DNA of 20,000 nt. It comes from an uncultured virus (IMG/VR IMGVR_UViG_3300021399_000146). Taxonomy: Duplodnaviria; Heunggongvirae; Uroviricota; Caudoviricetes. Under the pieces are notes generated by a model. The model was not told where the DNA came from and searched no databases. It worked only from the letters and a program-made list of their open reading frames with translations. Made by a program: the position numbers and the translations under genes. The stretch lies in the IMG/VR virus record IMGVR_UViG_3300021399_000146, one strand, 5' to 3'. Positions 6,141 through 17,784 of the stretch are shown one piece after another; within the stretch, counting starts at the first letter, position 1, and each line of letters opens with the position of its first letter.

Positions 6141-6323
6141 TAAAACCGCTCATGAGAATAATGGTGGCAGTGTATAGTTTGCCCAGCGCCTCCGTGTTAA
6201 ACGCAGTATCCTGTTCCCGATACCATCGGCTTTAATGTTTAACTACAACCGGGGAGTGTCTTTTAAAATAATTATCAATTATTCAATGAAGTAACACTAC
6301 CGTCTGCTTCATGAGCGGTTTTA
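6141..6323 (-). ncRNA. Y-RNA-like RNA A (YrlA-type module with non-tRNA cargo)
   Basis: 15-bp terminal inverted repeat; GAAGCAG, GGTAGTGT/ACACTGCC stem, TACTTC and TTCTC motifs; begins 7 nt after the Ro60 stop. Confidence 0.75.
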
Positions 6324-6330
6324 AACTTAT

Positions 6331-8055
6331 TTAATTTTTGGGAGACTCATGAGGAGAAGTGCTCTTCCACTCTATGTTATCCCACTGCTTGATGTATTCG
6401 TGTGCAAAGAGTATCTCTTTGCCAGTCCATCCTGTAAGCATTGCACATCTGTATGTCATCTGAGGAACTACGACGTTGTCATATCCCGCAGTCTGAACAG
6501 AGAATACATTGAGCTTTGGGTTAACCTTCTTACGGTAATCAAGTATAAGCTTGTATACATTGATCATACCGCGAAGGTCTACTTGTCTATCCCTTCCCCA
6601 TACTTTGTATGTCCAACGTGAACGCTGTCCATACTTATAACTGAACTCATCTATGTATTCCCTCTGATCCTTGCCGGTTCCATACAGACCACCACAGCCT
6701 GCTTGCATGTCAGAGAATATGAACAAGTTGTCAACCCATACATGATTCTCGATAGCATTCTTGAACCATTTCCAGATTCCTCCTTCGGTCTGACCACCGA
6801 TATCAGAATAATGGTCGGCATCGATTTCTGATGCCTGTTTGAGAACACCATTTCTGTGTGAAACAGGAAACTCTTTGTAGTTGTCACCGAACTTGACAAC
6901 GTAGCCCTCATCTGAACACTGCGCTGCAATGACAGATGACAGATTGTCGATATGCGCTACTGTGGTAGAACCGTATTCACTTGTCAGTGCACCCCAAGCG
7001 GAGCCGGAGTTATCAGACAGAGATACGGTAACACCTTTGAGTTTAGGGAGGTTCTCGACTGCGGCATCGATACACTCCTCAAGACCGTCAAGTATAACAG
7101 GAAGATGATGTACTTTACTCTCATTCTTGAGTCTGTTGTAAGCAGCCTCATATCTGAATGGGAACTGTTTTCCTTCCTTTACGCCATCCTTAAGATCAGC
7201 CATATATGCCTTGCAGAATTCAATATCATCGATTTCTGTGAAGACATTCTTGATGTTCCTCAGGAGAGCCATGTGTCCCATCTTGGTAGTAGCAAGAATA
7301 TCCTTCCAGCTCATACCACGAGACTTCTTCTGCTCCCATGTCTCATCCTCTTCTTTAACCTGAACCGTACCAGTCTTCATAAGTTCATCAAGAACCTCTG
7401 AATTAGCATGAGTCAAGCGTACTGCATTGATCATACCAAGATCAGCATTCTTATACTTATTAACCTGATAACGGCCAAGATGAGAAAGCTTATCAGCTAT
7501 ACTCCTCTTGAGGATAGAAGGCATGTTGTTCTTCTTACCTTCGTTGATGAAGAGGTAATAAGAACACTGTGATGCAGGCTCATCAGCCCTCATCATAACC
7601 TGTGCATTATATTCGTTGAACTTGCCAGGATTCTGGTCAGACCATTCTTTCCTTTTGGGATGAACGGCTGCACGAACCATGATTACCTGAGGATTCAACC
7701 TCATGTAGTAATCCTTTCTAAGCTCAACCGCAAGTTTCAGAGTTCCCTCAAAGTCATAGTCAAGAGCCTTGTCTATAACCTCCTGGAAGATCTCCGTTGT
7801 TGACTTCTTATCATAGTCTTTCGTGATGAGTTCATCATCTTCGAAAGTAGCATCTTCCTTCTCAAATGTTCCATCTGAGATGTTGTTTCTGTAATAGGAA
7901 GGCTCACCAAAGATAGAAGAAGCAGCAACCATTTTGAGAGTATCGAGTGGATTAATCTTATAAGATTGACCTCCCATAAAGTTTGTCACTACTTCATCAG
8001 GCTTGAGTTTCTGATTATCAGTCATCTTCTTAGCCATGTCTGAAATTCTGCTCAT
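6331..8055 (-). CDS. Ro60/TROVE-domain RNA-binding protein (Rsr-like, TROVE + vWA)
   Basis: 574 aa; N-terminal NFMGGQSY, HMALLRNI, QFPFRY, vWA MIDAS DNSGS and later FSD motif; RBS AAGGAGG. Confidence 0.92.
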   Translation of the reverse strand: MSRISDMAKKMTDNQKLKPDEVVTNFMGGQSYKINPLDTLKMVAASSIFGEPSYYRNNISDGTFEKEDATFEDDELITKDYDKKSTTEIFQEVIDKALDYDFEGTLKLAVELRKDYYMRLNPQVIMVRAAVHPKRKEWSDQNPGKFNEYNAQVMMRADEPASQCSYYLFINEGKKNNMPSILKRSIADKLSHLGRYQVNKYKNADLGMINAVRLTHANSEVLDELMKTGTVQVKEEDETWEQKKSRGMSWKDILATTKMGHMALLRNIKNVFTEIDDIEFCKAYMADLKDGVKEGKQFPFRYEAAYNRLKNESKVHHLPVILDGLEECIDAAVENLPKLKGVTVSLSDNSGSAWGALTSEYGSTTVAHIDNLSSVIAAQCSDEGYVVKFGDNYKEFPVSHRNGVLKQASEIDADHYSDIGGQTEGGIWKWFKNAIENHVWVDNLFIFSDMQAGCGGLYGTGKDQREYIDEFSYKYGQRSRWTYKVWGRDRQVDLRGMINVYKLILDYRKKVNPKLNVFSVQTAGYDNVVVPQMTYRCAMLTGWTGKEILFAHEYIKQWDNIEWKSTSPHESPKN

Positions 8056-8101
8056 AACGTTTCCTCCTTTGAAAAAATATGTTATGGAATAATATATTAA
8101 A

Positions 8102-8225
8102 ATAGACCCATAAGAATATTTATACTGTGTAAATTTTATATCCCGCGGAGACAGTTGCGGTCGCTAAACATTGTCAGCATTTTGGCGTCTCGAAGTAACA
8201 GCATAGGTCTGCATTATGGGTCTAT
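8102..8225 (-). ncRNA. Y-RNA-like RNA B (module with pseudoknot-like cargo)
   Basis: 12-bp terminal IR ATAGACCCATAA; TGCAG, TATGCTGT/ACAGTATA, TACTTC, TTCTT. Confidence 0.75.
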
Positions 8226-8236
8226 AATAATAAGCG

Positions 8237-8386
8237 AACATGCATGAGAATATTGGTACGGCGTACATAACCCATCTTTTGGAAAGATGGGTCGTCAGGA
8301 ATTGAACCTGAAATGTAAGATTTGCAGTCTTATGTGTTTACCATATTTCACCACGAAGTATCCGTACCGACTGCATCATGCATGTT
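8237..8386 (-). ncRNA. Y-RNA-like RNA C containing a complete permuted tRNA-Cys(GCA) cloverleaf
   Basis: 11-bp terminal IR; module plus D arm, TAAGA-CTGCAAA-TCTTA, TCAGG-TTCAATT-CCTGA, and an acceptor hairpin closed by a CCA loop. Confidence 0.8.
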
Positions 8387-8413
8387 TTTAAAGGGATTGG
8401 GTAATACAACCCT

Positions 8414-8491
8414 TGGTCTCACATACTTGATTTGAACAAGTGATCTTCCGGGTATGAACCGGACGCTCTGGGCCAACTAAGCTAATGTGAG
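8414..8491 (-). tRNA. tRNA-Met(CAT), probably elongator
   Basis: TCCGG-TTCATAC-CCGGA, paired 1:72, A73, CCA. Confidence 0.85.
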
Positions 8492-15601: not shown

Positions 15602-16369
15602 TCATTCAACTCTATCGAGCGCGTTGGATAAGCGTATATTCTCAAAACGGTCTCTTACTTCTTCAGCCTTACCACAGGTCATTTTTCCTTCACTGCATTT
15701 ACCTGTAACGGCACATGATGGACCGGCATGCCTAAATATATCTGGTGCTACATTCTCACAGAGTTTATACATTTCTATTGCTAAATCTCTTATTTCCCAC
15801 TGCGCTCTATTACAGCAGCGGAGTTTGAAGAAGTTGAATAATGAACGAACATTCATTGTTACAATGATAGATGTTTGACATGCATTCGGAAGAACCATAC
15901 GAGCATCCTCATTCGCTTTCTTTTCAGCAGCTTTCTGATCCATGCCCTGATTGATAAAGTCTTCTATCAAACAGCCTCTGATGCTTTCATAGTCAACCTG
16001 AATAGAAGCCATCAGATATTCATATGCCTGTAATGCCGCTGGACAATTCTTGATACTCTCGGGGATAACATAGTCAAACTGTGTCTCATCAACATAACGC
16101 TGAGACTTCTGAGAGTAAGAAGCGATACGATGACGAACCAGTTGGTGTGAACATGCCCTCGAGATACCTTCAATTGCAAAGGTAAATGTTACATGCTCTA
16201 TTGGTGATTCATGACCAAGCTCAAACAGCATGTTCAAGAACTTCTCCGTCTTCTCAGGGGTGAGTCCTTCCTGAAGAGACTCGATGTCTGAAGAAGAATA
16301 ACACAGCTTTGCGGCTGTTGCTATTACTTTCTCTGGGTCGGGTGTGTGTGCAATAAGCTTAACTTTCAT
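15602..16369 (-). CDS. thyX: FAD-dependent thymidylate synthase
   Basis: GHESPIEH, SRACSHQLVRHRIASYSQKSQRY ThyX signature, AQWEIR. Confidence 0.96.
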   Translation of the reverse strand: MKVKLIAHTPDPEKVIATAAKLCYSSSDIESLQEGLTPEKTEKFLNMLFELGHESPIEHVTFTFAIEGISRACSHQLVRHRIASYSQKSQRYVDETQFDYVIPESIKNCPAALQAYEYLMASIQVDYESIRGCLIEDFINQGMDQKAAEKKANEDARMVLPNACQTSIIVTMNVRSLFNFFKLRCCNRAQWEIRDLAIEMYKLCENVAPDIFRHAGPSCAVTGKCSEGKMTCGKAEEVRDRFENIRLSNALDRVE

Positions 16370-17784
16370 TTCTTTTCCTCCATATAATCATAGTCTTTTA
16401 AAAATATTCCATACAAAGCAAGTTTATCAACAAGCTCCTTTATGGATTTTTTACCAAGGTTTCTGACATTCAACAGTTGTGAATACTGTAATGTCGACAA
16501 TGTTGCTACATCATTTATACCTGCACGGTATAATGCGTTGTAGGTTCTTATTGACAAATTCATATCTTCCAATGTGGCCGGTATAAACAGTTTTACATCA
16601 CCCGTTTTTGCAACACGTAACTCCTGGTTTGTTTTAATCAAACCTTTTTCATATCCACACATGAGAATGTTATACATCAATGGGTTATCTGATATATATG
16701 AATAAATATCAGGAAGTGTTGCACCAACTGATGCAGGAATTATCAGATTTGCAACAGCATAGAATTCATCAGATGGTCCTCTGAATAGTTCTTCAATTAC
16801 GGGATCACCAACATTATCAGTTACCAGTCTAAAACCATTGGTTATCAGTTTTCCGTACTTTGCAGCATTGCGTAATGTATGCAATGCTTTTACATAAATT
16901 TGCTGTAATCTTCCTGCTGACGGATAACCATGATGTGCTTCACGTATAGCTGTTAAAGATTTCCCATCGACGAATTTTTCTTTTATAATTATGAACTCCC
17001 GTTCATTGAGTAACCTCCTACAGTTAAAAAGGATCACCTTTGATAGACTTTGTTCATGATTAATTATAAACTCGGTATCTGTTATGTTTTCATTTTTTAT
17101 AAATGTATCAATGAACGTGTCGCTTGTGAAAACATTTGATTGTATTAAATTATCACTGTACATTGCTCTTATTACATTCCATGGGAAATACGAAACTAAC
17201 GGAAATTTGATTTTGTCGTTAGTGATCACACGTAATGCATCTACGATATGCCTATACTGACACCATCCTGCTGCACCATGTTTGAGTTGATATTTAATAG
17301 CAAACATTTTGAAGTCATCTATTGTATGTACGTTGTTATAGTTGAGCTCCCGTATGGTTCCTTTCATTCTTGCATTACACATGATCTGGTTAATATGATT
17401 TATATTTGGATTCGTATACTCGGGTTGATTAAATACCCTTCTTGATATGTTCATATGTATTTTTTCAACATTTCTAAAGCTGACTACATACAAAAGAGGA
17501 TATTCTTCCATATACGAATCCTTGATTGAAGGATTTGTCATACCGAAGTAATACTTCATTAAATATGCAACAACTTCGTCTGAATTATAACCCGAATCCC
17601 ATAGAGACTGGCTTATTGCATCATATATCTTTTCAAGATCGAAGTTATCGATATTTTCCCCATATAAATTTATGAGGTCACGGTCATTCAGTGTCTTGAT
17701 GAACTCATCGACAGTAGTCGTTTGGTTTAACCCGAAAATGTTCTTACTGATATTATCAGCCATTTTTGTTAAATTGAATTTCAT
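16366..17784 (-). CDS. protein with sigma70 region-4-like HTH and C-terminal RNA polymerase alpha-CTD-like domain
   Basis: LNEREFIIIKEKF.DGKSL.AI......S.GRLQQI..KAL..LR; LEDMNLSIRTYNALYRAGI.....L......L..VRNLGKKSIKEL. Confidence 0.75.
   Translation of the reverse strand: MKFNLTKMADNISKNIFGLNQTTTVDEFIKTLNDRDLINLYGENIDNFDLEKIYDAISQSLWDSGYNSDEVVAYLMKYYFGMTNPSIKDSYMEEYPLLYVVSFRNVEKIHMNISRRVFNQPEYTNPNINHINQIMCNARMKGTIRELNYNNVHTIDDFKMFAIKYQLKHGAAGWCQYRHIVDALRVITNDKIKFPLVSYFPWNVIRAMYSDNLIQSNVFTSDTFIDTFIKNENITDTEFIINHEQSLSKVILFNCRRLLNEREFIIIKEKFVDGKSLTAIREAHHGYPSAGRLQQIYVKALHTLRNAAKYGKLITNGFRLVTDNVGDPVIEELFRGPSDEFYAVANLIIPASVGATLPDIYSYISDNPLMYNILMCGYEKGLIKTNQELRVAKTGDVKLFIPATLEDMNLSIRTYNALYRAGINDVATLSTLQYSQLLNVRNLGKKSIKELVDKLALYGIFLKDYDYMEEKK

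Follow-up and report, generated by a model that had tools for sequence, protein, structure and literature searches.

A Y-like RNA beside a phage Ro60-type gene carries a tRNA body with a true anticodon loop and no chargeable end

Background

What would an anticodon be doing on a Y RNA? The question is raised by a 20,000-nucleotide stretch of DNA from an uncultured virus of the Caudoviricetes (IMG/VR record IMGVR_UViG_3300021399_000146), hereafter the window. On its minus strand, at 8386..8237 and about 180 bases 5' of a TROVE/Ro60-type gene on the same strand, lies a Y-like RNA element in which a two-part stem carries a tRNA body with an anticodon loop. A first-pass annotation, made from the sequence alone, had read the locus as a Y-like RNA holding a complete tRNA-Cys permuted at the acceptor/D junction, and had left two readings, an unchargeable anticodon-displaying mimic or a permuted tRNA precursor. 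We favour, though by no means firmly, the reading that the element is a Y RNA on a Ro60 handle whose tRNA body is an unchargeable, anticodon-displaying mimic serving as an anticodon-specific decoy or tether, a judgement that covers its structural identity as well as its role. What is new is best called a Y RNA family whose tRNA body bears a genuine anticodon loop; the broader kind, Y RNA and tRNA mimic, is known. No description of an anticodon-bearing Y RNA was found in the full-text literature searched, and a precedent elsewhere is possible.

A tRNA body on a Y RNA-type handle

From its ends inward, the element consists of an outer stem of ten pairs, an internal loop of 7+7 nucleotides, a second stem of seven pairs, a linker of five nucleotides and the tRNA body (Table 1). 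The body keeps the native order, namely D arm, anticodon arm, variable loop of four nucleotides and T arm, and is followed by CGA, a 9-pair hairpin with a CCA loop, a linker of nine nucleotides and the returning strands of the two stems. All the segments listed by the first-pass annotation are present, in the order it gave, when the minus strand is read, among them CGACCCA with the U after it and, beyond the hairpin loop, UGGGUUA.

The Rfam tRNA model (RF00005) scores 46.5 bits on 8356..8292 (gathering score 29; E 2.8e-7 for the 20-kilobase (kb) window), in a match that is local only and covers model positions 5-66 of 71. The nucleotides expected of a tRNA are found in place, with U8, G18 and G19 in the D arm, UUCAA in the T loop and A15 pairing with U48. 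ARAGORN called 11 tRNAs in the window, the element not among them, and the body has only three acceptor pairs (UCG/CGA); the description of the tRNA as "complete" has to be given up. When the 150-mer was folded, it reached -51.3 kcal/mol compared with -30.8 +/- 3.2 kcal/mol for shuffled sequences (z -6.4), and none of 200 shuffles was as good. By its Rfam tRNA score, its fold energy against shuffles and the covariation of its helices in relatives, the fold of the element is beyond chance.

Neither a BLAST search of the locus against 50,697 phage records nor an exact 38-base pattern from it, sought in viral contigs, gave any match. A covariance model (R1) was built from the window copy and four copies spotted by eye in related viral contigs. 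At E<=1 it gave 354 matches in the window and 64 related loci, many of them full-length handles clustered around the TROVE gene; at E<=1e-8 there were 47 matches (42 distinct) in 95 sources including metagenome loci, and at E<=1e-6 there were 11 matches in 80 loci from genomes or metagenome-assembled genomes (MAGs). The loci of Acetatifactor muris (L178) and Bacillus sp. (L186), which have related TROVE genes, gave no R1 match at E<=1e-6. The Y-like character proposed earlier holds well, given the position beside a TROVE gene and the conserved handle in hundreds of neighbouring modules.

Covariation across the family

The covariation statistics come from the first alignment of 24 relatives, in which 93.1% of cells are paired, versus 36-43% when the partners are slid by 1-3 columns. 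Both sides have changed in 28 of the 32 pairs, and none of 500 shuffles reaches any of five measures. In the handle, eight of nine pairs of the outer stem (helix 1, P1) changed on both sides and six of seven pairs of the second stem (helix 2, P2) covary, with 92% and 91% of cells paired, respectively. All pairs covary in the acceptor-proximal helix 3 (three of three, with UCG/CGA, GCA/UGC, UUA/UAA and ACA/UGU as versions; 88% of cells paired), in the D stem (helix 4, three of three) and in the anticodon stem (helix 5, five of five; 98%). The T stem (helix 6) is 100% paired, three of its five pairs covarying and the remaining two being invariant G-C. By a strict parse, 31 of the 42 distinct R1 matches hold the full native-order tRNA body. 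Of these bodies, 17 have an A:U and eight a G:C as their tertiary 15:48 pair, and the other six look partly mis-registered.

Grouped by flanks and body, the window copy and its direct orthologs make up seven distinct sequences (group X). A paralog group (Y) is found in the same phages and has no member in the window, and a third group (Z) carries GUA. In the window copy, a 5' part of group-X type is followed by a variable loop and a T arm resembling those of group Z, so that parts are shuffled; the long variable arm (14-16 nucleotides) of its six orthologs is missing from it.

Such shuffling could be taken to mean that the element is a decaying, functionless tRNA-Cys gene trapped between the repeated handles of an array. 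The arrays are indeed repetitive, the window copy is a composite of the kind just described, and a 31-nucleotide exact repeat lies nearby. However, covariation is seen in each of the six helices among phages with TROVE proteins of only about 50-80% identity, the 15:48 tertiary pair covaries too, and the capping hairpin that follows the body is kept though its sequence has changed, which makes decay very improbable.

Pairing register and capping hairpin

Two registers compete for the G and A of the CGA that follows the T arm. In the family register, CGA pairs with the UCG of the handle motif (…UACUUCG) and the 9-pair hairpin stacks on top. In the alternative register, which was that of the first-pass annotation, the hairpin is extended to 11 pairs by an A-U and a G.U at the cost of UCG/CGA, and the break in the chain falls at positions 7/8. 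Nearest-neighbour energy for the window copy alone is lower in the 11-pair register (-47.1 versus -43.0 kcal/mol, the unconstrained optimum being -51.3), whereas covariation across relatives, many of which have no capping hairpin, favours UCG/CGA. Since this pairing covaries in relatives, the chain break is placed inside the acceptor arm, at about tRNA positions 4/5; a break at the acceptor/D junction, as first proposed, agrees with the energy of the window copy and not with helix 3.

A capping hairpin is found in all members of groups X, Y and Z, with differing sequences, 3-9 pairs and the loops GCAU, GAAAA, ACA, GCA, UAU, GUCAA, CUAAUC, UUAACA and UUU. The CCA loop, on which the earlier description also relied, does close the hairpin of the window copy and occurs in no relative. 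The "U73" base is no better conserved, the base after the acceptor pairs being different among GCA copies. Because neither feature is conserved in relatives, the CCA loop and U73 of the window copy are best taken as chance.

Anticodon loop and triplet

The frame of the anticodon loop is conserved, and the triplet inside it varies. A 7-nucleotide loop with U33 and A37 (N-U-NNN-A-N) is found in 34 of the 42 distinct R1 matches. A motif-and-pairing census, made by regular expression over 225 sources without requiring U33 or R37, found 264 distinct handles around TROVE genes, of which 28 hold a native-order tRNA body, 48 have the YrlA order (T before D arm) and 188 are others; its criteria are tighter than those of the model search, and variants are missed. 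U33 is combined with a purine at 37 in 27 of the 28 native-order bodies of the census, which have G (14), U (10) or C (four) at position 34 and never A. The 31 parsed bodies carry the anticodons UUU (8), GCA (6), GUA (3), GUU (3) and UUA (2), and UAU, GAU, GCU, CAA, GGU, UGU, UGA, GUC and AAU once each. The conservation in homologs that was to be expected of a displayed anticodon is therefore seen in the loop frame and not in GCA, which already varies among the seven direct orthologs: GCA in the window copy, GUU in L071, L072 and L073, UAU in L008, UUA in L067 and GAU in L070.

Outside the triplet, the anticodon arm of these seven sequences is invariant except for one covarying pair. Close pairs of orthologs diverge more inside the triplet than outside it: they differ at two of three triplet positions and 12 of 154 others (L071 and L008), at one of three and 10 of 157 (L070 and L072) or at three of three and 21 of 153 (L067 and L070). 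In the paralog group Y, five of the six members keep GCA on three covarying versions of the anticodon stem. For eight of the 12 anticodon types with a free counterpart, a handle-borne loop is identical, letter for letter, to a loop of a free-standing tRNA of that type in the same loci.

The identity of tRNA-Cys rests on U73, the anticodon GCA and core features, and position 15:48 is G:G in the tRNA-Cys of E. coli. GCA alone fits in the element, where 15:48 is A:U. A13.A22 was considered as a mark of Cys identity and rejected, as the same feature occurs with GUA, UAU, GUU and UUU bodies. Likewise, the class II variable arm was considered as a retained Leu/Ser identity and rejected; it fits the CAA and UGA bodies and does not fit UAU, GUU, GUA and GCU. 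The Cys identity inferred at first pass from U73 cannot be kept, with U73 unique to the window copy, A13.A22 shared by bodies with Tyr-, Ile- and Asn-type anticodons, an A:U at 15:48 and five triplets among the orthologs, and the label "tRNA-Cys" describes the triplet only.

Anticodon-like hairpins are also displayed where there is no tRNA body. Defined as a 5-pair stem with a 7-nucleotide loop (Y32-U33…R37, T loops excluded) and compared with 200 mononucleotide shuffles, they number 38 in the 188 "other" handles versus 5.9 +/- 2.5 in shuffles (maximum 15), and 16 in the YrlA-order handles versus 1.7 +/- 1.2. Because of this enrichment, and because the same arrays hold handle-bearing tRNA-like genes, anticodon-loop display is a family habit and not the oddity of a single copy, the Y handle being grafted onto tRNA parts in several topologies.

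These data also bear on a simpler account, in which the element is a generic tRNA-shaped Y RNA, working like YrlA or Yrn1 as a gate of Ro60 and a tether to PNPase or to some other general binder of tRNA shapes, with an anticodon arm that is architectural and a triplet that drifts. The five triplets on nearly the same body in direct orthologs and the mismatch of variable-arm type and anticodon are what such drift would give, and the known Y RNAs act by shape and PNPase binding (PMC4201824, PMC12135203). However, 24 of 28 bodies have G or U at position 34 and none has A, in an RNA that is A+T-rich, group Y keeps GCA while its stem covaries, and handle-borne loops copy those of cognate tRNAs. Moreover, the bare anticodon-like hairpins are about 6- to 9-fold enriched in handles without a tRNA body and hence have no L-shape to support. 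This is the main competing account, and we regard it as rather unlikely.

Charging, free tRNAs and expression

The element has three acceptor pairs in the window copy and three or four in the family, and a seven-pair stem with a free 5' end is absent from it. No CCA follows these pairs, whereas all 11 free tRNAs of the window encode one. Over eight loci of the focal clade, a CCA end is encoded by 69 of 70 free tRNAs called by ARAGORN, the exception lying inside another Y module, and by none of seven handle-borne bodies, the one flag in a loose test being a CC+A inside a hairpin. The element is probably not chargeable as it stands, and in this respect the mimic proposed at first pass agrees with what we find.

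No other tRNA-Cys was called by ARAGORN in the 20-kb window. Free tRNAs with the anticodon of a handle-borne body co-occur with it in several relatives (Cys in L072; Asn in L071 and L072; Lys in L049 and L063), so that a second tRNA-Cys, which the earlier annotation wished to see checked, is missing from the window and present in L072.

Colinear contigs covering the element were found in four metatranscriptome libraries from four studies, each continuing into the TROVE gene. Three of them (436, 544 and 549 nucleotides) show no difference from the window, and the fourth (1303 nucleotides) has 14 differences, all outside the element. They lend weak support to transcription of the element. None has a joint at the element, although contigs show neither ends, strand, level nor rare forms, and this speaks weakly against a rearranged product. 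The contig ends at 8382 and 8389 and the uncovered stretches were given no weight. Joints listed elsewhere lie at tRNA genes and have sides of 20-24 letters; they resemble cross-matches that stem from other organisms and were discarded. A scan for promoters and terminators gave counts at chance level and nothing at the element.

With these results we can consider whether the element might be a tRNA precursor, or a handle-tagged working tRNA-Cys, which would be cut near the capping hairpin, trimmed and given CCA, or freed of its handle with its ends rejoined. There is a precedent for the first route, since the YrlA RNA of Mycobacterium smegmatis is cut by RNase P and given CCA in vivo (PMC4201824). 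This opening of a looped acceptor needs a 7-pair acceptor stem, as opposed to the 3 + 9 pairs (or 11 in the other register) of the element, whose length is not conserved. Several relatives are called as tRNAs by ARAGORN, in L008a a loop closes an acceptor of exactly 4+3 pairs, and tRNA-like genes that bear a handle, an open acceptor of seven pairs and an encoded ACCA occur in the same arrays; the lack of any other Cys-type tRNA match in the record of L009, discussed below, also favours a working tRNA. Yet within the focal clade the acceptor-like arm is anywhere between 7 and 12 pairs long, many relatives lack the hairpin, processing of the window copy would call for a cut within a helix of 9-11 pairs, and CCA is not encoded at the right place though it is in 69 of 70 neighbouring tRNA genes. 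The same anticodon is also carried by co-occurring free tRNAs, and no skipping or back-joined contig was seen at the element in the four RNA libraries, whose contigs drop rare forms. A precursor thus appears quite improbable, and its permuted form, the second of the two readings left by the first-pass annotation, gains no support.

Comparison with known Y RNAs and permuted tRNAs

Canonical YrlA (RF02553; Salmonella, mycobacteria and mycobacteriophages) resembles the element in lying on the same strand beside a Ro60/TROVE gene, in a handle formed by its ends, and in a tRNA-mimic effector domain whose acceptor is looped over and which has both a D and a T arm. The 5' strand of the element's handle has a YUAY-like UUAC and a GAAGC-type motif, as in YrlA. 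The arms of YrlA, however, follow the order T, acceptor, D, in contrast to the native D, anticodon, variable, T of the element, and its handle replaces the anticodon stem whereas that of the element joins at the acceptor arm. In the Wang 2018 preprint, canonical YrlA is described as having no anticodon loop; the element has a full 7-nucleotide one, a contrast that the first-pass annotation had drawn correctly. The Rfam YrlA model gave no match at E<=10 on 8100-8420 (gathering score 69 bits), and modules with the canonical YrlA order elsewhere in the window reach sub-threshold YrlA scores of 26.3 and 22.9 bits. Since the Rfam score, the arm order and the missing anticodon loop all fail, we do not file the element as YrlA.

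In arm order the element is closer to Yrn1 of Deinococcus radiodurans, which has a D-like region, an arm at the anticodon position, a T arm and a Ro60 stem on the acceptor side. According to its published description, on which our comparison is based, Yrn1 has no full D arm, a 6-nucleotide loop and no variable arm (PMC4201824). The D arm, U33/A37 loop, variable region and 15:48 pair of the element are of tRNA grade, and its many paralogs carry different triplets, unlike Yrn1 as described.

The Thermus phage phiLo also has a phage Ro60 with Y-like RNAs just upstream (Yrl1 and Yrl2; PDB 9L5Y, 9KOP). Its Ro60, the two phage Y-like RNAs and host PNPase form a complex in vitro (PMC12135203). The phiLo RNAs are described there as of a stem-bulge-stem form with a CGAA motif, and in that text "anticodon" occurs 0 times and "tRNA" twice.

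The circularly permuted tRNA genes of the red alga Cyanidioschyzon merolae mature via a circular intermediate into ordinary tRNAs. As in the element, their 3' acceptor strand precedes the 5' acceptor-like strand and the two are joined by a loop. In the element, by contrast, only the outer acceptor arm is "permuted", it is absent in relatives, and the RNA contigs show no joined form.

A possible role for the displayed anticodon

The ends of the element pair into a two-part stem whose internal loop is conserved. This is the presumed handle for Ro60, and by analogy with all Y RNAs it would be bound by the Ro60/TROVE protein, probably docking at the internal loop. The tRNA body is predicted to fold as an L-shape, presenting a genuine anticodon loop and elbow. 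Because there is no free NCCA end and the capping hairpin is in place, the element could neither be charged nor decode. An anticodon-reading factor may then bind the loop and elbow; candidates are an anticodon nuclease, an anticodon-loop modification enzyme, the anticodon-binding domain of a synthetase and a T-box leader of a Bacillota host. The captured factor could be soaked up, or tied to Ro60 and to a nuclease recruited by Ro60, and the phage would presumably benefit.

A more specific version has the RNAs act as "programmable" anticodon decoys tethered to Ro60, each presenting a single anticodon loop on a tRNA body or a bare stem-loop, in which the triplet would be the specificity determinant, swapped to follow a host factor that Ro60, perhaps with PNPase, neutralises or exploits. 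We put this forward tentatively, as a possibility rather on the doubtful side. Anticodon nucleases of anti-phage defence would be an example of such a factor; their known targets include the Lys-UUU, Tyr, Asn, Asp and Cys tRNAs, and these overlap the commonest triplets of the handle-borne bodies.

Several observations weigh against reading the element as a decoy or tether specific to the anticodon. We fitted the alignments to a model of our own and the sequences are related, and the shuffle controls therefore overstate the support. The five triplets among seven direct orthologs fit retargeting and fit equally an unconstrained triplet, and a column test is not significant (variation in three of three anticodon columns compared with 67 of 141 other columns; p 0.11 by Fisher's test). 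Long and short variable arms are not distributed by anticodon, with long arms in UAU and GUU bodies and short ones in GUA and GCU bodies; since arm type is independent of the anticodon and A13.A22 is family-wide, no amino-acid identity set has been kept. In the L009 record (163 kb, 61% complete), the handle-borne GCA body is the sole Cys-type match and all 10 tRNA-family matches lie inside the array, which leaves room for a decoding role there and, for the check on a second tRNA-Cys, adds a record with none. DNA carry-over could account for the contigs from the RNA libraries. Finally, RtcB, a marker of tRNA repair, occurs in one of five large related records, and for this reason its linkage was dropped as a general context.

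The family may help with a question left by the 2018 YrlA structure preprint, whose abstract names the partner of the tRNA-like domain as "an unknown factor". A tRNA-like domain with a true anticodon loop and varied triplets on the same body points to anticodon-reading partners, and the family supplies natural specificity mutants for pull-downs and defence assays. Single phage arrays, moreover, join Y RNA and tRNA in native order, in permuted order, as a bare stem-loop and as an open acceptor with an internal handle, and these topologies bear on the origin of Y RNAs from tRNAs.

Features of the element and the TROVE gene

Table 1. Parts of the Y-like RNA element, in 5' to 3' order of the RNA, with the adjacent module and gene.
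Feature	Position	Strand	Sequence	Pairing and remarks	Basis
Outer stem P1, 5' strand	8376..8385	(-)	ACAUGCAUGA	helix 1; pairs with 8238-8247	
Handle internal-loop motif, 5' side	8369..8375	(-)	UGCAGUC	family motif GA[A/U]GC[A/G]G, near-invariant in alignments A2, A3 and A5	
Second stem P2, 5' strand	8362..8368	(-)	GGUACGG	helix 2; pairs with 8255-8261	
Conserved motif after P2 5' strand	8361-8355	(-)	AUACUUC		
Acceptor-proximal 5' strand	8354..8356	(-)	UCG	tRNA positions 5-7, within conserved handle motif; pairs with 8292-8294	Rfam alignment
U8, G9 and D arm	8334..8353	(-)	GUGA / AAUAUGGUAA / ACAC	helix 4; A13.A22	Rfam alignment
Anticodon arm	8316..8332	(-)	UAAGA-CUGCAAA-UCUUA	helix 5; anticodon GCA at 8325-8323	Rfam alignment
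Variable loop	8312..8315	(-)	CAUU		
T arm	8295..8311	(-)	UCAGG-UUCAAUU-CCUGA	helix 6	Rfam alignment
Acceptor-proximal 3' strand	8292..8294	(-)	CGA	helix 3; tRNA positions 66-68	Rfam alignment
Capping hairpin	8271..8291	(-)	CCCAUCUUU-CCA-AAAGAUGGG	stacks in place of acceptor pairs 1-4	
3' linker	8262..8270	(-)	UUAUGUACG	unpaired under both pairing models	
Second stem P2, 3' strand	8255..8261	(-)	CCGUACC	helix 2	
Handle internal-loop motif, 3' side	8248..8254	(-)	AAUAUUC	family motif A[U/C]AUUCUC	
Outer stem P1, 3' strand	8238..8247	(-)	UCAUGCAUGU	helix 1	
Second Y-like module	8100..8224	(-)		between element and TROVE gene	R1, 48.2 bits, positions 1-146
TROVE/Ro60-type gene	6331..8055	(-)		574 amino acids; presumed partner	

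The TROVE protein scores 22.1 bits with Pfam TROVE, just below the cut-off of 23, and matches phrog_850 ("RNA-binding protein") at E 3e-42. A scan of viral contigs with the single protein found none, and an alignment query did find relatives; of 7997 candidates scored, 3135 proteins are homologs at E<=0.001, the longest of their contigs measuring about 285 kb, and many of those among the matches listed (120) carry PF05731. The closest TROVE proteins (P0001-P0005) are 78-90% identical. A profile of 28 relatives matches the solved Ro60 of Thermus phage phiLo (9l5y, 9kop) at E 3.4e-13, which is the only solved relative of this TROVE family by sequence.

The window also holds phage-like genes for a UvsX-like recombinase, an SbcD-like nuclease and ThyX. 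At 16366-17784 (-) lies an open reading frame of 472 amino acids whose C-terminal part is an RNA polymerase alpha C-terminal domain (Pfam E 1e-15), unusual for a phage gene. TROVE relatives come both from viral contigs of large size and from MAGs that bear the labels Ruminococcus, Oscillospiraceae and Lachnospiraceae, and on this ground the host is probably a rumen or gut member of the Bacillota.

Neighbouring modules and other handle topologies

On either side of the element, tRNA genes and other Y-like modules are densely lined up. In the module that separates it from the TROVE gene, the handle is the same and encloses, in place of a tRNA body, a bare anticodon-like hairpin (AAAUG-CUGACAA-UGUUU, with GAC; fold z -3.3). 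Right after the TROVE stop codon, at 6319..6142 (-), a further Y-like handle carries a different conserved structured insert, and such a handle is also present at L009 5727-5890.

The 31-nucleotide exact repeat is of the handle 5' half and lies at 9317-9287 and 9044-9014 (-); a single 3' half between the copies could pair with either. At 9106-8953 (-) there is a tRNA-Tyr-like gene with an open 7-pair acceptor (GGGGGAG/CUCCCCC), A73, an encoded CCA, a long variable arm and the loop CUGUAAA, in which the Y handle forms a closed hairpin between the D region and the anticodon stem. Its orthologs are found around L067 1150-1330, L009 3170-3340, L008 1800-1960 and L072 1100-1260, and an ordinary tRNA-Tyr is also present in the window (10091-10006).

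Another tRNA-like unit, at 9521-9384 (-), has a D arm, a T arm and an acceptor of seven perfect pairs (GGCUGGA/UCCAGCC), and a Y handle closed by a short loop replaces its anticodon arm, like a YrlA turned inside out at the DNA level. It overlaps a YrlA-order module at 9464-9312, and the boundaries of units in the array are ambiguous. Similar units occur at L009 ~2740-2900, L072 ~2120-2290, L037 ~8130-8270 and L041 ~8060-8220. Two Rfam tRNA matches have no ARAGORN call, at 10186-10108 (-) with 34.0 bits and at 9220-9135 (-) with 27.8 bits, just sub-threshold; the latter lies within a long module with a 12-pair enclosing stem.

Handles with one or two bare anticodon-like stem-loops are found at L010 5798-5900, L025 5849-5950, L012 5856-5962, L015 5991-6059 and L022 5642-5734, with the loops CUUCUAA, CUUCCAA, CUUUUAA, CUUAAAA and CUGCUAA. 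Handle-borne bodies with UUA, which would read the stop codon UAA, lie at L035 1798-1931 and L067 3536-3691, and ARAGORN calls a free-standing "tRNA-Stop (tta)" at L037 6167-6256; some related phages may recode a stop codon.

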